This document shows positions 3,213 to 60,208 of a stretch of 60,208 nt of DNA, in pieces. The position numbers and the translations under genes are program-made. How positions within the stretch are numbered: the first letter of the stretch is position 1; every line of letters begins with the position of its first letter. The notes below the pieces were generated by a model, which saw nothing but the letters and a program-made list of their open reading frames with translations, was not told where the DNA came from and searched no databases. The stretch lies in NCBI GenBank assembly GCA_964651475.1, contig CAZYXV010000012.1, positions 64,001 through 124,208 on the forward strand, written 5' to 3'. The DNA is from an uncultured Anaerolineae bacterium (GTDB lineage: Bacteria > Chloroflexota > Anaerolineae > Fen-1058).

Positions 3213-5132
3213 TCACGGTCCAACCATTATTTCTTTTACCAAAATGCTATCACCTGACGCGCTGGTTCTGCCGGCGTCCATCACGGGCAGGCGTCCCGAG
3301 AGGGTGTTGGCAGGGTACATGCCGACTTGCAGCGTGTATTTGCCGCGCGGCGCATTGGCCGGAATGTACAAAGAGTACAGGTCCACTATCGGCGCGCCTC
3401 TGTTCCACGTGGAGGTGGGCGCCAGGCCGCCTTGAGGCTCACTATCGGCCTGCGCCACCGGCCGCGGGTTGTTGGGACCAATAAGGTGCACAAACACTTT
3501 GTAATCGGCCGGTACGCTCCTGACCCGCGACCGCCACGTAAAGGCCACCTCGACGTTTTCTCCGGGGCGAAACGCATTGCTCGTCAGGTCAGCGCTCTCT
3601 AGCGTAATGACGTTGCCCAGGTTGACGCTGAGCGAGATGACGCTGCCGCTGCTCAGAACCAAGGTGAGCGGCATACCGCTGGTGAGCGGCATACCAGGCG
3701 GCGGCACCTGGCTCAAGATGCGTCCCACGGGGTCGTTAGGGCTCCACTGTGAATCAAAGTGCATGACCCATCCGTAGCTTTCCAATCCTTTACGCACTTC
3801 TTCGTTGTATTGCAGCCCGATGACCGAAACCACGTTGGCCACTGGCGGGCCTTTGCTGATTACGACGCTGACGGCGTCGCCCCGCCGCGCTTGCGCGCCC
3901 GGCGCGGGCGATTGTTCCATCACCGCACCTGCCGGTATTTTAGAGTCGTTGCGTTCCTCCTTAATCGCCATCTGCAGGCCGGCATCCGCCACCAGCTTTT
4001 CGGCTTCTTGCTTGTTGTGTCCTACCAGGGTGGGAACGTTTGTCTGCTCGCCGACGCCGGCGATAGTGGGTGTGATGGTTGGCGCCAGCGTGGGCGTGGG
4101 TGTGGAAGGGATGCGCTCGCCGCCATAGAACTTGTCGTACACCAGCGAGTAGAGCGGGATCAGGCCAATGACCATCACCGCCGCCACGGCAGCCAGCAGC
4201 CATACCGTCCAATCAAAGCTGCTGCGTTCGGCAGTGATGTGTTGCGAGGTGGTCCCCGTCACCGGGCCGGTGGGGAGGGGACGCTGGTAGCCGGTGGCTT
4301 GCTCGCTGCTGTGTTGATATTCGTACAGCAGGCGTCCCAGTTGATCGGCGTGGCGGTAGCGCTGCGAAGGTTCTTTGGCCAGGGCGCGCGTGACGATTTG
4401 TTCGAGTTGGGCGGGGACGGCTGAATTAAACTTGCCGATGGGGGGCGGCTGGTCGCGCAAGTGCGCCATCGCCAATTGCTGCTGGGTATCGCCTTCGAAT
4501 GGCAGGCGGCCGGTCAGCATCTCGTACATGATGATGCCGATGCTATACACGTCTGAAGCGGGTGTGGGGGGATTGCCGGCGGCCTGTTCGGGCGAAAAAT
4601 AGTGCGGCGTGCCCCATACGCCGGTCGTGACGCCAGTGGCCGAGACGCTCGAAAGCGCGCGCGCAATGCCGAAATCCGTCACCTTGGCGCGCCCGTCCGG
4701 CGTGACGAGCACATTTTGCGGTTTGACGTCGCAGTGGACGACGTTCGCGCGGTGCGCGGCGCCCACCGCCGCGCAAATCTGGATCGAGAGATTCAACATG
4801 CGGGGCAGGCTAAAAGGCGCTCCGTGGCGAATCAGTTGCTTGAGGTCGCTGCCCTCTACGTATTCCATGATGATGTATTGTTTGTCGCCGTCCAGGCCAA
4901 AATCGTGCACCGTGACAATATTGGGATGCGATAGATTTGCCGCCGCTCGAGCCTCGCGTTGAAAGCGCGCCTGAAATGACGGGTCTTCGGCAAAGCTTTC
5001 GCGCAAAATCTTGACGGCCACGATGCGGCTCAGCATGGTATCTTGGGCCTTGTACACCACCGCCATGCCGCCGCTGGCGACGCGCGCGATGAGCTGATAG
5101 CGATTGTTGAGCAGCTGACCTTCAGTTGGCAT
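3213..5132 (-). CDS. Ser/Thr protein kinase with a TM segment, Pro/Thr linker and extracellular PASTA domain (PknB-like)
   Basis: 639 aa. N-terminal Hanks kinase motifs (VAVK, HCDVKPQN, DFG, SPE). TM helix WTVWLLAAVAAVMVIGLIPLY. PASTA-like segment VPTLVGHNKQEAEKLVADAGL...VVISKGP, plus a further C-terminal beta-rich domain. Confidence 0.85.
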   Translation of the reverse strand: MPTEGQLLNNRYQLIARVASGGMAVVYKAQDTMLSRIVAVKILRESFAEDPSFQARFQREARAAANLSHPNIVTVHDFGLDGDKQYIIMEYVEGSDLKQLIRHGAPFSLPRMLNLSIQICAAVGAAHRANVVHCDVKPQNVLVTPDGRAKVTDFGIARALSSVSATGVTTGVWGTPHYFSPEQAAGNPPTPASDVYSIGIIMYEMLTGRLPFEGDTQQQLAMAHLRDQPPPIGKFNSAVPAQLEQIVTRALAKEPSQRYRHADQLGRLLYEYQHSSEQATGYQRPLPTGPVTGTTSQHITAERSSFDWTVWLLAAVAAVMVIGLIPLYSLVYDKFYGGERIPSTPTPTLAPTITPTIAGVGEQTNVPTLVGHNKQEAEKLVADAGLQMAIKEERNDSKIPAGAVMEQSPAPGAQARRGDAVSVVISKGPPVANVVSVIGLQYNEEVRKGLESYGWVMHFDSQWSPNDPVGRILSQVPPPGMPLTSGMPLTLVLSSGSVISLSVNLGNVITLESADLTSNAFRPGENVEVAFTWRSRVRSVPADYKVFVHLIGPNNPRPVAQADSEPQGGLAPTSTWNRGAPIVDLYSLYIPANAPRGKYTLQVGMYPANTLSGRLPVMDAGRTSASGDSILVKEIMVGP

Positions 5133-5137
5133 AGTGT

Positions 5138-5212
5138 TTAATCCAGACTCAAGAATTCTTCTTGGAAAGCTTTGACGGCCTCTTGCCCAGAGATGTTGGT
5201 TAATCTACTCAT
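5138..5212 (-). pseudogene. Truncated HicA-like mRNA interferase toxin remnant (24 codons)
   Basis: My own translation of the - strand gives MSRLTNISGQEAVKAFQEEFLSLD*, which resembles the N-terminal 'L-SGKE-IK-L' start of YcfA/HicA toxins and then stops early. It lies 4 nt downstream of hicB and ends 6 nt before the kinase start. Confidence 0.35.
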
Positions 5213-5215
5213 TGG

Positions 5216-5425
5216 CTATACTGTCACCATAACGGGCTGTGCAAGTTTTGACAAAGTTGCTGTCGCTTTTTGATCTTCGGCCCACAGCCAAGCTATTACG
5301 GCTTCCTTGATATTGTCCAAAGTTTCCTTTTCGTCTTTACCTTGAGATACACAGCCTGGAAGCGCCGGACACTCTGCAACGATCCACCCATCTTCCGCTT
5401 GTTCAAGTGTAATGTGAAAGATCAT
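5216..5425 (-). CDS. hicB: HicB-family antitoxin (UPF0150, short form)
   Basis: 69 aa. MIFHITLEQAEDGWIVAECPALPGCVSQGKDEKETLDNIKEAV matches the characteristic 'E-DGxYxAxxPxLPGCxSQG-T-EEA' HicB N-domain. Confidence 0.6.
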   Translation of the reverse strand: MIFHITLEQAEDGWIVAECPALPGCVSQGKDEKETLDNIKEAVIAWLWAEDQKATATLSKLAQPVMVTV

Positions 5426-5494: not shown

Positions 5495-7018
5495 CTAGTC
5501 CAAGTTCCCCACTACTTTTTCAACCTCGTCCAAAATCTCGCACGATTTGACCAGCTCCATCATCCGCGTATGGTCGGGGTAGAGTGGCCGGTCTATGTCG
5601 AGGTGTTCCACGTATTTGCGAACGACAGCCCGCGCTGCCTGCACGCCGTTGCCGGGGGTAAACGTGCGAAAGTCTAGCGCCTGGGCCGCGGCCATAAACT
5701 CGATGCCCAGCACGCCGTAGGCGTTTTCCAGGATTTGGGCGTTCTTGATGGCCGTGTTCATGCCCATCGAGACAAAGTCTTCCTGATCGGCGGCGGCGGG
5801 GATAGATTGGATGCTGGCCGGCATGGAAAGGATTCTTTGCTCGACGATGAGGCTATCGGCGGTGTACTGGCTGAGCATCATGCCAGACATCATGCCGGCG
5901 CCCTTGGTCAGGAACGGCGGCAGCCCAATGCTCAGCGCCGGGTTGGTCAGGCGGTTGAGGCGGCGTTCTGAAAGAACGCAGACCATGGTGATGGATGCGC
6001 CGGCCATATCCATCGGCAGCGATATCGGCGATCCCTGAAAATTGGCGCCCGTCAGCGTCAGCTTGTATTCCGGCAGAAAGATGGGGTTATCGGCCACGGC
6101 ATTCAACTCGATTTCTACCTGGCTCCTGGCATAATCCAGCGCGTCGTGAGCGGCGCCGATGACCTGCGGAGACGAGCGCATCGAATAGGCGTCTTGGACT
6201 TTGATCTTGAGCTTGCCCGTGAGCAGGTCGCTGCCTTCGACGCATTTCAGGATGGCGCGAGCGGTGCGGACCGCGCCGGAAAATCCGCGCAGTTGGTGCA
6301 GCCGCACGTCGTAGGGCTTCATATTGGCGTACAGCGCCTCTAGCGTCATGGCGCAGGCGATTTCAGCTTGCTTGAGCCAGCGATTCATATCATACAACTG
6401 GAGCGCGCTCATGGCGGTGATGAGGTTGGAGCCGTTGATCGCCGCCAGGCCATCGCGAGCTTGCAGGTCGGGGATGGGGATGCCGGCCTTGTCCATGGCT
6501 TGCTTGCCGGGCATGCGCTGGCCCTGGTAGTAGGCTTCTCCTTCACCCATGAGCAGCAAGGCAATCTGAGACATTGGCGCCAGGTCGCCGCAAGCGCCGA
6601 CAGAGCCTTTCTGGCAGACCACCGGCGTGACGCCCTTGTTCAGCATGTCTACCAACGTTTGGGTGATTTCAGGGCGGCAGCCAGACTTGCCCCGAGCGTG
6701 CACGTTGATTCGGCTGGCCATCGCGCCGCGGACATATTCGATGGGCGCGGGAGCGCCAATGCCGGCGGCGTGATTATAGATCAGGTAGCGTTGAAATTGC
6801 TTGACTTGTTCGTCGTCCAACACGACTTCAGAAAATTCACCGATGCCGGTGTTGACGCCGTACATGATTTCGTGCGCCTGGATTTTTTCTTCCAGCATGT
6901 TGCGGCAAACCTTGATTCGCTCTACGGCTTCGGGGTCGAGCTCCACATGTTCTCCGTGCCGGGCAATCCGCACCAGTTTTTCGACGGTCAGATTAGAGCC
7001 GTCTAGGACGATAGTCAT
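5495..7018 (-). CDS. Histidine/aromatic amino-acid ammonia-lyase family enzyme (HAL/PAL/TAL-like) with an Ala-Cys-Gly in place of the canonical Ala-Ser-Gly MIO triad
   Basis: 507 aa. GVNTGIGEF, NHAAGIG, GSVGACGDLAPMS and PIFLPEYKLTLTGANFQG family motifs. The prosthetic-group precursor reads ACG. Confidence 0.8.
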   Translation of the reverse strand: MTIVLDGSNLTVEKLVRIARHGEHVELDPEAVERIKVCRNMLEEKIQAHEIMYGVNTGIGEFSEVVLDDEQVKQFQRYLIYNHAAGIGAPAPIEYVRGAMASRINVHARGKSGCRPEITQTLVDMLNKGVTPVVCQKGSVGACGDLAPMSQIALLLMGEGEAYYQGQRMPGKQAMDKAGIPIPDLQARDGLAAINGSNLITAMSALQLYDMNRWLKQAEIACAMTLEALYANMKPYDVRLHQLRGFSGAVRTARAILKCVEGSDLLTGKLKIKVQDAYSMRSSPQVIGAAHDALDYARSQVEIELNAVADNPIFLPEYKLTLTGANFQGSPISLPMDMAGASITMVCVLSERRLNRLTNPALSIGLPPFLTKGAGMMSGMMLSQYTADSLIVEQRILSMPASIQSIPAAADQEDFVSMGMNTAIKNAQILENAYGVLGIEFMAAAQALDFRTFTPGNGVQAARAVVRKYVEHLDIDRPLYPDHTRMMELVKSCEILDEVEKVVGNLD

Positions 7019-7095: not shown

Positions 7096-8673
7096 CTAAT
7101 CCAACGGCGCGCCCAATGCTTCCTCGACGGCTTGCAGCACCGCGCCTTCTCGCACGAGCTGGCAGGCGGTGTCCAGATAGGGGTGCATCAGCCGGTCGCG
7201 TTCGAGCAGCGGGATATCCTGGCGCAGGCGGCGGTGAGCGGCTTGCGTGCCCGCGCCCAAACGCGCGTGCGGGTATTGGTGCAAGCGCAAGTCCACCGCT
7301 TGCGCGGCGCACACCAGCTCGATGCCGATGACGTGCTCGACGTTGCGCACGATTTCCCACGTGTGGCGCGCCGCGTTCATCGAGTTGCTGATGTGGTCTT
7401 CCTGGTCGGCGGAGGTGGGAATGCTATCCACGCTATCAGGATGGGCCAAGACTTTATTGTCTGCGACCAGCGCGGCGGCGATGTATTGCGCCAGCATAAA
7501 GCCGCTGTTCAAGCCGCCGTCCTGGATCAGCATGGCGGGCAGCCCGTCGTTCAATTCAGGCGCGGTCAGGCGGAACACGCGCCGCTCGGACAGGTTGCCG
7601 ATCTCGGACACGGCAATGCCGATAAAGTCGGCGGCAAATGCAATTGGCTCGCCGTGAAAGTTCCCGCCCGAAAGCGCCTTGTTGACGCCGGGGAGATCCA
7701 GAAAGAGCAGGGGGTTATCGCTGGCAGCGTTGATCTCGTCTTCGAGTGTGGCATGCGCAAAAGCCAGCACGTCGCGCACGGCGCCCATCACTTGCGCGCC
7801 GCAGCGGAGGCTGTAGGCGTCTTGCACTCGCCCGCCTTGATCTATCAGGTTGCTCCCCGCAATCATTCGCCGAATATTGGCCGCCGAGGTGATTTGGCCC
7901 GCGTGTCGCCGCGCGCGATGAATCCGCGCGTCGAACGCCGCCGACGCGCCGCGCACGGCTTCCAGGCTGAGCGCCAGGGCGATTTCGGCCGTGCGCACCA
8001 GGCGTTGAGCGTCGTGCCAGGCCAGGGCGGCCATGGCGGTCGAAAAGGTCGTGCCGTTATTGAGCGCCAGCCCTTCTTTTGCGCCGAGCACCACGCGCGA
8101 TAGTCCCGCCGCCCGCATGGCTTGCGCGCCGCTCATGCGCTCTCCCTGGTAAAGCGCCTCGCCGCTGTCGCGGTCGGGGTCGTGCGGATCGCAGCACAAG
8201 ACCAGCACCAGGTGAGAAAGCGGGGCCAGGTCGCCGCTGGCGCCCAGCGAGCCTTTTTCGGGGATAATGGGGTGGACGCCGGCATTGAGCATGGCGATGA
8301 GCGTATCGAGCGTTTCGGGCCGCACGCCGCTGTGCCCGATGGCCAGCGTGTTGGCGCGTATGAGCATGGCGGCGCGTACCACATCTTGGGGCAATGGGGC
8401 ACCCGCGCCGACGGCGTGGCTCAAGATCAGGTTGCGGCTGAGCGTTTGCGAGTCGGCGCTGCTCACCTGGACGCGCGCAAAGACGCCAAAGCCAGTGTTG
8501 ATGCCATAGACAATCGGCGCGCCTCGCGATACAATCTCGTCAACCCAATTGCGGCAGGCGGCCACGCGCGCGCGGGCCGATTGATCGAGCTGGACCGCCT
8601 GGCCAGCGCGCGCCACCTGGATAACGTCTTGGATGTGAAGCTCCTGTCCATTCAATGCCAATAGGGTGTTCAT
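7096..8673 (-). CDS. hutH: Histidine ammonia-lyase-like enzyme with canonical ASG MIO triad
   Basis: 525 aa. GINTGFGVFA, LSHAVGAG (Ser-His as in HAL), GSLGASGDLAPLSH and SGGNFHGEPIA. The hutH symbol is tentative; an aminomutase or TAL cannot be excluded. Confidence 0.7.
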   Translation of the reverse strand: MNTLLALNGQELHIQDVIQVARAGQAVQLDQSARARVAACRNWVDEIVSRGAPIVYGINTGFGVFARVQVSSADSQTLSRNLILSHAVGAGAPLPQDVVRAAMLIRANTLAIGHSGVRPETLDTLIAMLNAGVHPIIPEKGSLGASGDLAPLSHLVLVLCCDPHDPDRDSGEALYQGERMSGAQAMRAAGLSRVVLGAKEGLALNNGTTFSTAMAALAWHDAQRLVRTAEIALALSLEAVRGASAAFDARIHRARRHAGQITSAANIRRMIAGSNLIDQGGRVQDAYSLRCGAQVMGAVRDVLAFAHATLEDEINAASDNPLLFLDLPGVNKALSGGNFHGEPIAFAADFIGIAVSEIGNLSERRVFRLTAPELNDGLPAMLIQDGGLNSGFMLAQYIAAALVADNKVLAHPDSVDSIPTSADQEDHISNSMNAARHTWEIVRNVEHVIGIELVCAAQAVDLRLHQYPHARLGAGTQAAHRRLRQDIPLLERDRLMHPYLDTACQLVREGAVLQAVEEALGAPLD

Positions 8674-19817: not shown

Positions 19818-20181
19818 TGCAAAACTCCTTTTTTAGCTCACAGATTCACACGGATGAACACGGATAATGTATAAAAATCCGCGTTACCCGCGACCAATCG
19901 GGAAACTCTACGATTATATAAAATTCAAAACGAGATGGCTCTGCATTGCAGAGTTAACGCGCAATCAAGTGCGGCGGAGGAGAGTTCACCTGTCAGCCGT
20001 GGAATGTTTAATGCGGGCGGCCCAGCGTAGGGCCTGGTCGTTGAGGAAATACATGGTATTACTGTGAAAAATTACTCGTATTACATAATCATCGCCGGGT
20101 AGGGTCCCTAGCCGACTGTATTGATTATACAACCCAATGGCGATTTTGTACACCCTTTCCTGGGGCGTAATTTCGTAACTC

Positions 20182-41799: not shown

Positions 41800-42516
41800 T
41801 TAAGGGATATACCACTTGAACGGGATTTGGATCTCGGTGACAACTTTTACCGTCCCGGGATTGTCCGGCACGGCTGAAAAGATAGTCAGCGTGAGTATGG
41901 ACTCAAAGGTCCCGCCGGTCGGCGCGCCGCCATCCACGTAGACGCAAAAGTCGGCTGTGAATCCCTGGCACTGTTTCTGATCGTCGCATACCCCTTTGGC
42001 GGTTTGGATCTTGATGTTGGGACGGGCGTATTGGGGATAGACTGACCAGTTCCTGTCCCAATAGTACATTCTTCGCTCCGGCTCGCCCACGCCTTCTTCC
42101 CACGGATACGATGCGCTCACAAACTTGTTGACGCAGCTTTCCCCGCCTGGGGGCGCCACCAGGTCTACGCCGGATGGGGCCGGCGGCGCGGTGGGTTGTG
42201 GGGCGGCAGTAGGTGATTTAGTGGGCGCGGGGGTCCTGGTGATGGGGCGCGGCGTGCTCGTCGGCGTTAGCGTGGGCGGCGCGGGCGTCTTGGTGGCCGT
42301 GGGCGGCAGGGGCGTTTGGGTGGCCGTGGGGCGCGGCGTGTCGGTCGAGGTGGGGGTCAGGGTGGGCGTGCTCGTCGGCGTGCTCGTCGGCGATGGCGTA
42401 TCGGTAGGCGGCGGCTCGGTGGGGGTGGCGGTCGGAGCCGGCGGGCTGGCGCAGCCGGCGAGCATAAAGACTGCAATCAGCATGTAGACCCATGAGACAA
42501 ACAAGCGTCGTGTCAT
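41800..42516 (-). CDS. Lipoprotein with a long Pro/Thr-rich linker and a C-terminal domain of unknown function
   Basis: 238 aa. Signal plus lipobox LAGC, about 90 aa of PT-rich linker (TPTSTPTLTPTSTDTP...), and a globular C-domain with 4 Cys. Confidence 0.6.
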   Translation of the reverse strand: MTRRLFVSWVYMLIAVFMLAGCASPPAPTATPTEPPPTDTPSPTSTPTSTPTLTPTSTDTPRPTATQTPLPPTATKTPAPPTLTPTSTPRPITRTPAPTKSPTAAPQPTAPPAPSGVDLVAPPGGESCVNKFVSASYPWEEGVGEPERRMYYWDRNWSVYPQYARPNIKIQTAKGVCDDQKQCQGFTADFCVYVDGGAPTGGTFESILTLTIFSAVPDNPGTVKVVTEIQIPFKWYIP

Positions 42517-56057: not shown

Positions 56058-57398
56058 ATGTCATCTCCAGCTTTTGTTCCCTCCCCTGATGTGAGCGCCA
56101 TCCTCCACGCGCTGCTGGATATTTGCGAGCGGCGCAATTTGCCTTCATTCCTTCGGCTTCGCTCCCTGGCCTGCCGTCCAGGGCAGGCAGGCCAGGCCTC
56201 GTCCCTTCCAGGTGTGGGAGAGGGAAAAGTAATGTACCGAACGATTCGCTGTGACGTGCAGGCCATGACGTTGCCTGGCTATCACAGCCAGGTTGATCCC
56301 AATCCGCGCCAGGTCGCCAACGAGCAGTTGACGGCGTTGGAACAGCAAGGCTATGTGCGTTTGATTTGGCTGCCGGGCCAGGAAAACCACTTGCTTGCTT
56401 CCATTTTGCTCGCGCCTGAATGCGCTGACGAACTATTCGCCTGGCTGAACCGCACACCCCTTGCCGCGCAACGAGCCTCTCTGCGCGACGTGCTGCTCGG
56501 CGAACGCTTTCGTTTTAAAGATTGGCGCTTGCGCGCAGTGGAGCACACGCTGGCCCAATTGCGCGAAGGCAAATCGCCCGCGCCATTCAGCCTGACCGAT
56601 CAAGATTTCAACCGCGACGTGTTGACGGCGCTGCGCGCATTGAGCGAGGTGCGCGAAGAAACGCCTTATCGGGTTTTTAGCGTGCGCGTGTTCAATGACA
56701 GCAAGCGCTTCGAGTTGCTCAAAGGCGCGCTGGTCACATTGGCGCGGCGCCATCAAGCCGAGTGGACCGACCTGTCCGATGGCGAGTTGTTGCGCGAAGT
56801 GGGCCTGGTGGCAAATCCGAACCACCTGTATTTGTACGGCCCCTGGCGCTTGGTGGATGAGAGCGGTCAGGTTCTTTCGCTGGGCGAATTTTATCCGTCG
56901 GTTGGTGTGCCGGCGGCGCAGGCTGCGCGCGTACAGCATGTGGATGTTGCCGCTGCTTCCCGCGTGGTGTGCGTGGAAAATCAGACGACGTTTTACGAAT
57001 TGGTGCGCCGCGAAAGCGAGGGATTGGCGGCGCTGTGCTTGTGGGGCAATCCGTCCCCGGCTTGCCGGCACTTGTTGCGCTGCCTGATCCAGACTTGCCC
57101 GGAGCATGTACCCTTGTTGGTGTGGGCCGACCTGGATTACGGCGGGCTAAACATCCTGGCGCAACTGCGCAAAATCAGCCCGCGCTTCCAGCCATACCGC
57201 ATGGACATTCCCACGCTCGACGCACACGCGTTGTGGGGCAAGCCGCTCACCCGCGCCGACGAGAAAAATCTGACGCGCCTGGCGCAGCATCCGTTGCTGG
57301 CCGATATGCGCCCGGTTATCGAGCACATGCTGGCAAGGGGAATCAAGTTGGAACAGGAAGGGATTCCGGCGGCGGGCCAGGTTCCGCTAGCGAGATAA
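56058..57398 (+). CDS. jetD: Wadjet system protein JetD (MksG-like; DUF2220/Toprim topoisomerase-VI-like nuclease)
   Basis: 446 aa from the ATG 26 nt after the jetC stop; an alternative ATG lies at about 56232. C-terminal Toprim-like motifs VCVENQTTFYEL (E) and LLVWADLDYGGLNIL (DxD). Confidence 0.8.
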   Translation: MSSPAFVPSPDVSAILHALLDICERRNLPSFLRLRSLACRPGQAGQASSLPGVGEGKVMYRTIRCDVQAMTLPGYHSQVDPNPRQVANEQLTALEQQGYVRLIWLPGQENHLLASILLAPECADELFAWLNRTPLAAQRASLRDVLLGERFRFKDWRLRAVEHTLAQLREGKSPAPFSLTDQDFNRDVLTALRALSEVREETPYRVFSVRVFNDSKRFELLKGALVTLARRHQAEWTDLSDGELLREVGLVANPNHLYLYGPWRLVDESGQVLSLGEFYPSVGVPAAQAARVQHVDVAAASRVVCVENQTTFYELVRRESEGLAALCLWGNPSPACRHLLRCLIQTCPEHVPLLVWADLDYGGLNILAQLRKISPRFQPYRMDIPTLDAHALWGKPLTRADEKNLTRLAQHPLLADMRPVIEHMLARGIKLEQEGIPAAGQVPLAR

Positions 57399-57572
57399 CG
57401 GTTCCCCGGGCCTGACCCGGCCGGGGCCAGCCAACAGGGCCGCTATGGACTGACAGACTCAGTAGATCCATTTTGGGGTTTGTAGTAACAGCTTTAGCCG
57501 GCGAAAGAATCGCTAAAGCGGTTACTGCGAACGAGATTCTGCATCTGCTGAGACTTTAGAAAGGAGAAACCA

Positions 57573-58076
57573 ATGTCAGACTCGATCCTGATTGCTTATG
57601 CGACACGTTATGGTTCCACGCAAGAGGTCGCCGAAAAGGTCGCGGCGACGCTGCGGGAAGGCGGCCTGTCGGTGGATGTGCAACCCGTCAAACAAGTGCG
57701 GACGTTGGACGGCTACCGCGCGGTGGTGGTGGGCGCGCCGTTGTATATGTTCGATTGGCTCAAAGAGGCGCGCGACTTTATATCACGGCACCGCGCGGCC
57801 CTGGCGACGCGGCCCGTGGCGGTTTTCGCCCTCGGCCCGACCGAGGACAAGCAGGAAGACTGGACGGAAACACGGAAGCAACTCGACAAGGTGCTGTCCA
57901 AATTCCCCTGGTTGTCTCCGGTCGCCGTGGAGTTGTTTGGCGGCAAGTTCGACCCGACCCGGTTGACCTTTCCCTACAACCTGGTTCCGGGCCTTAAACG
58001 GATGCCCGTAAACGACATCCGCGATTGGGACGCCATTCGCGCCTGGGCCAACAGTTTGCCCGAAAAGCTCGCCTGA
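57573..58076 (+). CDS. Flavodoxin-like domain protein
   Basis: 167 aa. ILIAYATRYGSTQEVAEKVAATL flavodoxin N-terminal signature, AVVVGAPLYMFDW. AAAGGAGAAACC RBS. Confidence 0.65.
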   Translation: MSDSILIAYATRYGSTQEVAEKVAATLREGGLSVDVQPVKQVRTLDGYRAVVVGAPLYMFDWLKEARDFISRHRAALATRPVAVFALGPTEDKQEDWTETRKQLDKVLSKFPWLSPVAVELFGGKFDPTRLTFPYNLVPGLKRMPVNDIRDWDAIRAWANSLPEKLA

Positions 58077-58340
58077 GACATGTTGGCGCGCCGCTCCGGC
58101 ATTTCGAGCCGCCGCTTGCCGGCGACCTCGATTTGGCCGCGCCCTGCGTGCCCACCGGCGTGACGCCCATCAGCACGTACCCGCTCACATTCACCCGCAC
58201 CCCATGGTGAGTGTAAGCCGCGTTGAGGAGGGTAGCCGGCGCGTCGCTGGCCGTGAAGCACATCCCCAGCACCGTCCCGCCCCCTGAGTTGTTGAACCCC
58301 GCCAGGCATATCGGCAACATCACCAACGCGCCCCGCAAAA

Positions 58341-58463
58341 AAGCCCAACACGAATTTGCTCACGGATGGCACGGATGACACGGATTAGGGGGCGCGCCTT
58401 TCCATGTGTCCGTGCCACGCGCAACGTCCGTGTTGGGCTGCTGCATTGCTCTCAGTGGGTCAG
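58341..58463. repeat. Copy A of a roughly 120-nt structured repeat (three CATCCGTG units)
   Basis: AAGCCCAACACGAATTTGCTCACGGATGGCACGGATGACACGGAT...GTCCGTGTTGGGCT...CTCAGTGGG. GCCCAACACG pairs with CGTGTTGGGC. Homologous to copy B at 60022-60140. Confidence 0.5.
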
Positions 58464-58536
58464 TAGCTCATTCTCACTTACCGGGAAGAGGCAACAAATA
58501 AGAGCCTTATTTGAATATTTGAGACTAACCAAAAGG

Positions 58537-58761
58537 CTATTTTTTCTCCATCTGGAGCAATGTCATAAGACTCAAAATATTCACCAACAGAAATCCTATA
58601 TCTAACATGATCAAACTTACAATGCTGCGCCGTTTAGTTTCAGTTATAGCCTCACTATTTTGTTGAGCATGGTTGATTTTCCATAGGCTTAGAGCGCCAT
58701 AACAAAGAGAAGCAAGATTTATGATCCATGCTGTCAAGAGCAATATCCAAAAGAGGGTCAC
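58537..58761 (-). CDS. Small two-TM membrane protein; candidate immunity protein for the upstream Rhs toxin domain
   Basis: 74 aa. MTLFWILLLTAWIINLASLCYGALSLW...IVSLIMLDIGFLLVNILSLMTLL. Very low GC. Starts 58 nt downstream of the Rhs CT stop, on the same strand. Confidence 0.4.
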   Translation of the reverse strand: MTLFWILLLTAWIINLASLCYGALSLWKINHAQQNSEAITETKRRSIVSLIMLDIGFLLVNILSLMTLLQMEKK

Positions 58762-58819
58762 TTTGTGTCTCCGTACATTTATTTATAATTGGCCAGGTCT
58801 TTTCAAACTTGAAATAGAC

Positions 58820-59977
58820 TTATCGGGAAATAAGTGGCATAAAGACATTGTGACTACCTGTTGTATCCCGATGAATCAAGCCATCCAGTTCTGACCATGT
58901 CCAGAAAGCCTCCGCGGCAAGACTGCCCACAGGCCCCACACGGACTTGTGTCCGGGTAGTTGTACCCTCTGATGTTTCCACTGTTAATCGGTCCATAAGT
59001 ATATTAGTTTCCCAAGTTACACTACCACCATTTCCCATAGGATCGTTGGCGTGCAAATCCGCCAAAGCATTCCGTAAGTTTGACTGGTCATATGATGTAG
59101 CCGCCACATCGACGCCAAATGCAATCCCGGCTGGTCCGGCAGCAGCAGGTAGTGTCAGCCCAAGTGCTTGTAATACGGTTATGGCAGACTTGCCAAATAC
59201 CGTTGTCAGTATCGCCATTACGAGCCCTCCTTTGCTAGTTTGGTCTAAGGAGCCAATAAGTCTTTGAGCATCTTGAGGGGAAAGTTGCCGTTTGTAGACT
59301 GTAACCATTGGCACGGTATCTATCTCTTGCTGGATGTCGACCTTGCCTCCATTCATTCCCTTTCGGGCAAAATAGTCCGCCCAGCTTTCGTCGGTACTTT
59401 TGTCTCCCCAATCAACGTGACCTTCAATCCCGCAACTGCCGCCAGCGGTTTCGCCACACTCGCTCGCATGGCCTGTGGGGTCAACATATTTGACAGGATT
59501 ATTCAGGGCATAAGCATACCTGTTCAGCGATTGCGGGTTCCCCGGACTTGGGACAATCGTATCCGCGCTGAGGAACCGTCCCACGCGGGGCGAGTACATT
59601 CTTGCCCCATAGTCGTACAACGAGCCAAGCCCGGCCTCTGATCTCTGGCCTGTATACCGCAAGTCGGTTGGTAGAGAGCCGCTGGCCCACCTCGACTCGC
59701 CCCAGGGGGTGTACAGTTGCCGCGAGTGCTCCACCCCGCTGGAGGTAGCGGCTACGCTGGTGCTGCCCAGGTGATCCCCCAGTAAAAAGCCTGCCCTGGG
59801 CTGCGCCCAGCGCAGGCCAGGGTATACCACATTTGCAGTGGGGGTTTGCGTGCGCACGGCCACGCGCGTGCTGCCTGCGTAATAGTAGCTGCGCCAGGTG
59901 ATGCCATTGGGCGGCGTGACCGCCGCGGCTGGCGCGGCATTGCCGGAGCGGGGCTGCTCGCGCACAGGGGCGGTCAC
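58820..59977 (-). CDS. Orphan Rhs/YD-repeat protein C-terminal module: core end plus polymorphic toxin C-terminal domain
   Basis: Rhs core terminus ...YTPWGESRW...DLRYTGQRSEAGLGSLYDYGARMYSPRVGRFLSADTIVPSPGNPQSLNRYAYALNNPVKYVDPTGH, then about 215 aa of unrecognised low-GC C-terminal domain. No ATG start: the frame opens at a stop at about 60005 and begins GTG/Val directly after repeat copy B. Confidence 0.7.
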   Translation of the reverse strand: MTAPVREQPRSGNAAPAAAVTPPNGITWRSYYYAGSTRVAVRTQTPTANVVYPGLRWAQPRAGFLLGDHLGSTSVAATSSGVEHSRQLYTPWGESRWASGSLPTDLRYTGQRSEAGLGSLYDYGARMYSPRVGRFLSADTIVPSPGNPQSLNRYAYALNNPVKYVDPTGHASECGETAGGSCGIEGHVDWGDKSTDESWADYFARKGMNGGKVDIQQEIDTVPMVTVYKRQLSPQDAQRLIGSLDQTSKGGLVMAILTTVFGKSAITVLQALGLTLPAAAGPAGIAFGVDVAATSYDQSNLRNALADLHANDPMGNGGSVTWETNILMDRLTVETSEGTTTRTQVRVGPVGSLAAEAFWTWSELDGLIHRDTTGSHNVFMPLISR

Positions 59978-60021
59978 GGCTTGTGAGTGATGGGGTGACT
60001 TGCGTCACACGCCTGCCAGAG

Positions 60022-60140
60022 AAGCCCAACACGGATTTGCTCACGGATGACACGGATTGAAGCGCGCCCGTCCGTGTAATCGTGTCCGCGTGTACTAACG
60101 TGCATAACCGTATTGGGCTAGAGGGTTGCCCTCAGTGGCG
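60022..60140. repeat. Copy B of the roughly 120-nt structured repeat (two CATCCGTG units)
   Basis: AAGCCCAACACGGATTTGCTCACGGATGACACGGATTGAAGCGCGCC...CCGTATTGGGCTAGAGGGTTGCCCTCAGTGGCG. The outer stem is preserved with a C:G to U:G change relative to copy A. Confidence 0.5.
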
Positions 60141-60208
60141 TTAGCGTCTTCAGCTTTCTCTACCGTACATTTTATACTTGAGGGCAGCGTTGGGTCCGGG
60201 GTAGCGTA

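Follow-up and report, generated by a model that had tools for sequence, protein, structure and literature searches.

The window is a stretch of 60,208 nucleotides (nt) from an uncultured Anaerolineae bacterium (assembly GCA_964651475.1, contig CAZYXV010000012.1, positions 64,001–124,208 of the forward strand). Close to its end it carries a short minus-strand locus that is likely to be an orphan rhs-CT/immunity module of a Chloroflexota-like bacterium, consisting of a truncated Rhs core end, a polymorphic C-terminal (CT) domain and an immunity gene. The same reading was given in a preliminary description of the DNA, and is supported by the truncated core, the lack of start signals, the position of homologues after core ends and beside membrane-protein genes, and their occurrence in arrays. 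Criteria for orphan rhs-CT/immunity modules were defined by Poole et al. 2011 (PMC3150448). Found at the locus are a truncated core end without initiation signals, an expressible small gene downstream and a compositional break at the junction; the module adjoins ordinary chromosomal genes. The architecture of orphan modules is already well known. Judged by its sequence, the CT is a new, very rare and uncharacterised family of putative toxins, with four members known, and is the only new element of the locus. The features of the locus are as follows.

59468–60004, minus strand: 5'-truncated Rhs core end (TIGR03696 match, PDB alignments, tblastn).
58820–59467, minus strand: putative CT toxin domain, 215 amino acids (aa) plus stop codon, member of a very small uncharacterised family.
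59093–59230, minus strand: apolar CT segment rich in small residues, CT aa 80–125, GGLVMAILTTVFGKSAITVLQALGLTLPAAAGPAGIAFGVDVAATS (Kyte-Doolittle means, homologues).
58537–58761, minus strand: candidate immunity gene encoding 74 aa with two transmembrane (TM) regions (open reading frame, ribosome-binding site, hydrophobic helices).
58326–58483, minus strand: repeat copy A, ~158 nt, hairpin core 58342–58439 (alignment of copies A and B, single-stranded DNA fold).
60007–60164, minus strand: repeat copy B, ~158 nt, hairpin core 60023–60119, in the orientation of copy A (alignment of copies A and B, single-stranded DNA fold).

Truncated Rhs core end and its reading frame

The open reading frame (ORF) 58820–59977 (minus strand) encodes 385 aa, with GTG 59977 as the first possible start. 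An in-frame TGA is located at 60005–60007, so that the frame opens at 60004, nine sense codons before this GTG; opening after a stop codon and beginning with GTG are thus as previously described. No Shine-Dalgarno sequence is present upstream of GTG 59977. The frame had also been described as lacking ATG, which is correct for the start region (first 127 codons) and incorrect for the frame as a whole: the first ATG is M128, in 'MYSPRVGRF'.

TIGR03696 (NCBIfam, Rhs_assc_core) matches aa 89–170 (E 7.3e-23, 80.9 bits, cut-off 32.5). A Pfam search of the 385-aa ORF gave no match. The PDB chains TccC3, YenC2, Tse5 and other Rhs proteins align to aa 59–177, and every alignment ends at DPTGH (59468–59482). 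The Rhs core terminus noted earlier is accordingly present. About 170 aa of core are retained, comprising an A/P-rich linker ('PPNGITWRSYYYAG...'), the last shell strands and the plug/aspartyl-protease motif, the residues of which are kept ('GRFLSADT ... PVKYVDPTGH'). The last residue of the junction is H instead of L, as in many Chloroflexota homologues (DPTGH/DPSGH). The junction fits the PxxxxDPxGL type with two autoprotease aspartates (RFxSxD ... DPxG) and is the predicted cleavage site.

The full YD-repeat shell and the N-terminal trafficking domain are not in the window frame, which opens at 60004 after the TGA. The preliminary description had named an in-frame extension with a proper start and full Rhs repeats as evidence for a complete gene. 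Such an extension is absent; the upstream 200 nt consist of the hairpin repeat and an AT-rich tail, with no YD repeats. With a 1524-aa part of the full-length L006 main Rhs as the tblastn query, only 59459–59899 is matched, and no other Rhs sequence is found in the window. Because the frame opens after a stop codon and the match is restricted to this segment, the window ORF is a fragment and not a complete Rhs protein.

The 120 best homologues of the core part are short proteins of 106–314 aa; those named come from metagenome-assembled genomes of Anaerolineae, Ardenticatenales and Chloroflexi. One of them (P0029) ends a classical array (L006), in which a 3352-aa Rhs protein gene and an immunity gene are followed by several orphan modules (PT-HINT, AHH with Imm11). 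The core-end DNA repeats of these modules are 86–97% identical. In the full-length Rhs of L006, the A/P-rich linker and 'PPAGQTWKLYY', which also open the window ORF, come directly behind an inserted domain of lectin-like type; orphan fragments, including that of the window, begin in this linker. Rhs homology reaches almost to the opening of the frame, and the truncation point therefore lies within ~30 nt of repeat B. In the 3352-aa protein the lectin/DUF1349-like domain (L006 2954–3560) interrupts the shell just ahead of the final core strands, to which it is joined by the A/P-rich linker.

A start within the fragment was considered in connection with a stand-alone, intracellular module of toxin-antitoxin type. 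According to this explanation the CT is made from an internal start (M128 or GTG 59977) and acts on the producer, where the small protein restrains it. GGGG is located 6–9 nt upstream of the internal ATG at codon 128, and a weak promoter-like match at 59526–59498; a precedent is reported for the Salmonella orphan Rhs (PMC7043789). The scan for promoters and terminators gave nothing above the expectation from shuffled sequence, and promoter-like matches are no commoner than there. All family members keep the Rhs core end before the CT, which recombination and encapsulation need and a toxin-antitoxin pair does not. The explanation is very improbable.

The G + C (GC) content is 38–51% over 58450–59350, as opposed to 57–67% elsewhere, which bears out the low-GC patch noted earlier. 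The core part is host-like in composition (GC 64%). The GC content of the CT is 51% and that of the 74-aa gene 38%. At third codon positions the values are 72% for the core part, 44% for the CT and 42% for the 74-aa ORF, and 70–80% for host and neighbouring genes, which supports the module reading. Composition changes where core and CT meet, a pattern shared with other Rhs loci.

The module resembles the orphan rhs-CT/rhsI and cdiA-CT/cdiI modules of Enterobacteria (PMC3150448, PMC3967940) in the 5'-truncated fragment that keeps the core up to a DPxGL-type junction, in the toxin part without translation initiation signals, in the small immunity gene with its own ribosome-binding site directly downstream, in the GC content of CT and immunity genes below that of the core, and in the presence of its relatives in arrays behind full-length rhs genes. 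It differs from them in the host, which is Chloroflexota-like and not a proteobacterium, in the junction (DPTGH versus DPxGL), in that the main rhs gene is not seen at the window locus, and in the ~158-nt hairpin repeats that bracket it.

In 14 samples a Logan contig (L005) is 100% identical to window positions 58171–59600; because of this identity the module is not an assembly artefact. The contig breaks at 59600, inside conserved core DNA; a break there is to be anticipated if the population contains identical core-end k-mers at other places. PADLOC assigns the module to no defence system.

CT family, candidate immunity protein and proposed action

The CT is 215 aa long, the length estimated earlier. 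Homologues were searched among ~15 billion proteins in total. A word-indexed search of 5.8 billion clusters gave no match. An exhaustive HMMER search over 1.84 billion representatives gave two proteins, P0121 (E 5e-15) and P0122 (E 5e-4), and a profile search added P0123; three homologues are detectable in total. In all three the domain follows ...DPTGH or ...DPSGH. P0121 occupies the third place in an array of three orphan modules (L009). P0123 (L014) is an orphan directly 3' of a main rhs gene, and the core ends of the two are near-identical as proteins; location 3' of a full-length rhs gene with the same core end is thus seen in relatives (L014, L006). In P0122 just ~20 core residues are left. 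No member of the family has a Pfam, PADLOC or PDB-sequence match, and a profile of the family gave nothing against PDB sequences at E values up to 5.

The module of P0122, which consists of the toxin and a 4-TM gene (L010, also L011), is accompanied by direct repeats of 304 nt (4003–4306 and 5551–5854, 93% identity). The repeat covers the 5' end of a tyrosine recombinase gene together with the DNA upstream of it. At one copy the recombinase is intact (292 aa) and has another recombinase, of 527 aa, behind it; at the other copy the gene is an 82-aa stub. The truncated Rhs core end begins ~10 nt after the repeat, a topology like that of the window module.

The candidate immunity gene of the window (58537–58761, minus strand) starts 58 nt after the Rhs stop codon on the same strand, as described before. 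Its start is GTG, with GGAG at 58769–58772, seven nt upstream, and it is called as a gene on L005. The product has two hydrophobic helices, at approximately aa 3–25 and 46–68. It has almost no soluble part and can therefore hardly act outside the membrane. Behind each of the three CT homologues, on the same strand and either overlapping it or within 20 nt of it, is a gene for a small polytopic membrane protein, of 81 aa (2 TM) or 122–123 aa (4 TM). Conservation of the 74-aa ORF had been raised earlier as a point to be checked: its position and kind are kept in relatives, but sequence conservation is not detectable. Immunity candidates of the family are thus conserved in position and kind, not in sequence. 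The 74-aa protein probably protects against the CT.

The apolar segment of the CT has 19-residue Kyte-Doolittle means of 1.2–1.8 throughout. A nearly chargeless, G/A-rich segment of 45–60 residues with GxxxG-like spacing is common to the whole family; in the window it carries two charged residues only (one K, and one D near its end), and the equivalent in P0122 is 'AAPIIGIIGIGAAGVGITGLV'. An AlphaFold2 model built on the four sequences has a mean predicted local distance difference test (pLDDT) score of 57 and a predicted template modelling (pTM) score of 0.54. Moderate confidence is reached in a beta-alpha unit and in a long helix with a three-stranded sheet; the apolar segment is a helical insert between them, of lowest confidence. 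No significant or confident fold match was obtained. The earlier suggestion of a novel toxin fold is consistent with the absence of Pfam, PDB-sequence and significant fold matches, though the mean model score is too low to prove it.

The apolar segment is inferred to be a membrane-inserting helical hairpin or glycine-zipper region. The CT may be a membrane-inserting, depolarising (pore-forming) toxin that is neutralised within the membrane by the 74-aa protein, a tentative reading put forward because the apolar G/A-rich segment is conserved and its cognate partner consists almost entirely of two TM helices. A Rhs-borne pore-former is known in Tse5-CT, the immunity protein of which, Tsi5, is recovered in the cytoplasmic membrane fraction and is predicted to have two TM regions (PMC9637101). 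Common to the window module and Tse5/Tsi5 (RhsP1, Pseudomonas aeruginosa; PMC9637101, PMC10684867) are a Rhs-delivered CT with hydrophobic helices and no predicted enzymatic motif, a small immunity protein or candidate with two predicted TM regions and, by analogy, the proposed action of membrane insertion and depolarisation. Between the two CTs no sequence relationship can be detected; Tse5 (8cp6_B) aligns to the window protein in the core alone (aa 59–169). With glycine-zipper membrane-depolarising CTs of other polymorphic toxins (such as the EsxX LXG toxin, PMC12744356) the window CT shares a small-residue-rich apolar C-terminal segment with G/AxxxG-like spacing, a likeness of motif type only. 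The delivery scaffold of EsxX is that of type VII secretion system LXG proteins, whereas that of the window CT is Rhs. The main alternative is that the CT is a soluble toxin of other activity.

In the proposed course of events, which follows established biology of Rhs and contact-dependent growth inhibition (CDI) systems (PMC3150448, PMC3967940) for recombination, delivery and immunity, the CT would normally be silent. Homologous recombination of the ~0.5-kb core end with a full-length rhs gene elsewhere would join the CT to a complete Rhs shell, in which it would be encapsulated. Autoproteolysis at the DPTGH junction would free it for delivery to neighbouring cells, where its apolar segment would enter the cytoplasmic membrane of the target. 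The immunity gene, having its own ribosome-binding site, would be expressible regardless and would protect from kin deploying the toxin; the 74-aa two-TM protein would neutralise the CT inside the membrane.

Several points weigh against this reading of module and toxin. No full-length rhs gene is seen for this organism; the one that the preliminary description supposed to lie just past the window end would fall outside the contig, which probably ends there, 88 nt beyond repeat B. When the 385-aa ORF, a 43-aa ORF in repeat B and GlmS were looked up by exact match, no contig extending the locus was obtained. No significant sequence similarity is found among the candidate immunity proteins of the four family members. 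The hydrophobicity of the apolar segment is no more than moderate, and the segment might instead be buried inside a soluble domain. In PDB sequences the CT has no detectable similarity to Tse5-CT or to known pore-formers.

A decaying remnant was also considered, that is, the 3' end of an old rhs gene cut off by rearrangement or by repeat insertion, unused and not yet eroded. The toxin frame has neither a start codon nor a Shine-Dalgarno sequence, the 58 kb on one side contain no rhs gene, an assembly break falls at the module, and degenerate modules occur in related arrays (a visibly degenerate one at L009 1415–1762). Opposed to decay are the uninterrupted frame of 385 codons, including 215 codons at 51% GC, the 74-codon ORF that is open in 38%-GC DNA (chance ~0.6% per frame, own estimate from base composition), the well-placed GGAG before it, the catalytic-motif residues kept in the core end, and the identity of the sequence across 14 samples. 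Orphan modules tested in other species proved functional (PMC3150448). A decaying remnant is unlikely.

As an orphan module the locus adds little in architecture, since orphan Rhs modules are well understood, and the current understanding is not overturned. The CT lends itself to study as a candidate for a new antibacterial toxin that targets membranes, and comes from a phylum little studied so far; its family is consistently paired with tiny polytopic membrane proteins and has no Pfam or PDB relative.

Flanking hairpin repeats

The flanking repeat reported earlier is real. Copies A and B, which lie on either side of the module, align over ~158 nt (BLAST within the window, E 1.5e-10), and the 60 kb contain no third copy. 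No description of such bracketing hairpin repeats is known to us for classical orphan Rhs loci. Each copy contains an imperfect hairpin core of ~100 nt. Folded as single-stranded DNA, copy A gives -32.4 kcal/mol (z -5.2) and copy B -23 kcal/mol (z -3.5). The hairpins are built from CACGGAT/ATCCGTG heptads spaced by 9 nt (CACGGA / ATCCGTG in copy A). The stem is continuous for 13 bp, and extra unpaired bases are mostly on the 3' arm of the coding strand. The outer 7-mers are GCCCAAC...GTTGGGC in copy A and GCCCAAT...GTTGGGC in copy B. Similarity between the copies runs ~20–40 nt past both ends of the palindrome. Copy A is followed on the coding strand by CTTTTTTG, with a T-run. The Rhs frame opens at the 3' edge of copy B. 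The AT-rich tails before copy B and after the 74-aa gene are alike, a hint of a further module upstream, outside the window.

Neither exact nor degenerate versions of the repeat pattern gave a match in genome contigs, and a first metagenome scan gave none either. With a degenerate pattern, related hairpins were found in 22 metagenome loci, versus ~3.5 expected by chance (own estimate). Their contexts are unrelated and include a tandem array. By tblastn, the 22 loci contain no Rhs sequence and no relative of the two L010 tyrosine recombinases; in the one locus whose ORFs were inspected (L030), no cassette array was found. Several of the related loci have GTGTTGGG outside the hairpin. The window copies of this widespread hairpin class matched no Rfam family.

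The repeats are probably repetitive extragenic palindromic (REP)- or terminator-like elements that separate successive modules, because similar hairpins occur in unrelated settings, GTGTTGGG is found outside the hairpin in several of them, similarity extends beyond the palindrome and a T-run follows copy A. As such they would punctuate the modules of an array continuing past the window end.

A different role was considered, in which the module is a mobile cassette bounded by attC-like sites, in an integron array or a cluster of attC sites lacking integron-integrases (CALIN). A tyrosine recombinase beyond the window would move a 1.68-kb unit, consisting of Rhs fragment, immunity gene and hairpin. 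Canonical attC sites have an R box, an unpaired central spacer, an L box and extrahelical bases on the '' arm, and their conservation is confined to the site. Like integron attC sites, the window repeats are imperfect palindromes of ~100 nt in direct orientation, within the 60–140 nt typical of such sites, they flank exactly one promoterless unit, and the terminal heptamers of copy A fit the R''/R' consensus RYYYAAC...GTTRRRY on both sides. The restriction of both copies to the module is also in favour, as is the CT relative in L010, which likewise lies between direct repeats (304 nt, 93%) beside tyrosine recombinase genes. Unlike attC sites, the window repeats have a heptad-repeat build that is shared with hairpins outside cassettes, in the 22 unrelated contexts, where tblastn gave neither Rhs sequences nor relatives of the L010 recombinases, and several of these related loci have GTGTTGGG outside the hairpin. 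Also apparently unlike canonical attC sites, conservation of the window repeats passes both palindrome ends, the 13-bp stem lacks the usual unpaired central spacer, and the extra bases are on the arm opposite to that expected for a sense cassette. The window was found to contain no integrase and, by tblastn, no relative of the two L010 tyrosine recombinases, and GC is uneven inside the putative cassette. An attC cassette for Rhs modules would have been novel, because no paper ties attC sites to polymorphic toxins; this too speaks against it. The integron idea was downgraded on account of the heptad hairpin family in unrelated contexts and the lack of a recombinase relative in the window, and a cassette of this kind is highly unlikely. 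It is equally improbable that the repeats are active recombination sites, attC-like or otherwise recognised as hairpins, which move core-end/CT/immunity units between loci and genomes. If they were, the window repeats and the 304-nt repeats of L010 would be footprints of cassette-type mobility for polymorphic toxin modules in Chloroflexota. The direct repeats around the window module and one relative could inform the acquisition of orphan modules, through circular intermediates or recombination at repeats.

Further heptad elements were observed. In L036 (885–1065) CACGGAT/ATCCGTG hairpins form tandem units of 148 nt. L030 carries two near-identical hairpin copies 3 kb apart (5204–5244 and 8238–8278), in a genome full of other palindromic repeats. 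In the window, two CACGGAT heptads 10 nt apart ('TCACACGGATGAACACGGATAATG') are present in AT-rich intergenic DNA at 19840–19870, and a single further copy at 42101.

Neighbouring genes

The remaining window is ordinary chromosome, with genes for GlmS, cytidylate kinase, pseudouridine synthase and histidine kinases. The window end is very probably the contig end, which would place the assembly break 88 nt beyond repeat B. An Rfam scan of 57000–60208 found no credible RNA family; the sole match, SNORA50 (E 0.36), is due to chance. A 238-aa ORF at 41800–42516 (minus strand) contains short tandem GGCGTGCTCGTCGGCG repeats (repeat family D2) and has no Pfam match.

A flavodoxin gene (57573–58076) converges on the Rhs module. 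Between its stop codon and repeat A lies a 250-nt spacer (58077–58325) of 64–67% GC with no recognisable gene; ORFs in the spacer have no Pfam match. Logan contigs with the flavodoxin or JetD gene all end at 58162, and five of them carry the whole flavodoxin gene; the module contig L005 ends at 58171. No k-mer repeated in the window accounts for these breaks. Positions ~58162–58171 may be the true edge of a strain-variable island.

A complete Wadjet JetABCD anti-plasmid operon (50460–57398, plus strand) adjoins the flavodoxin gene and the Rhs module. It consists of JetA (PF18982, E 6.5e-87), JetB (DUF4194), JetC (SMC-like, 1116 aa) and JetD. In one Logan contig (L016) an HTH_26 gene lies ahead of the operon. 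GCA_041740315.1 contains a JetD of at least 90% identity, in another genomic context; downstream of that related locus the context is different and no hairpin is found. The Wadjet operon itself looks mobile.

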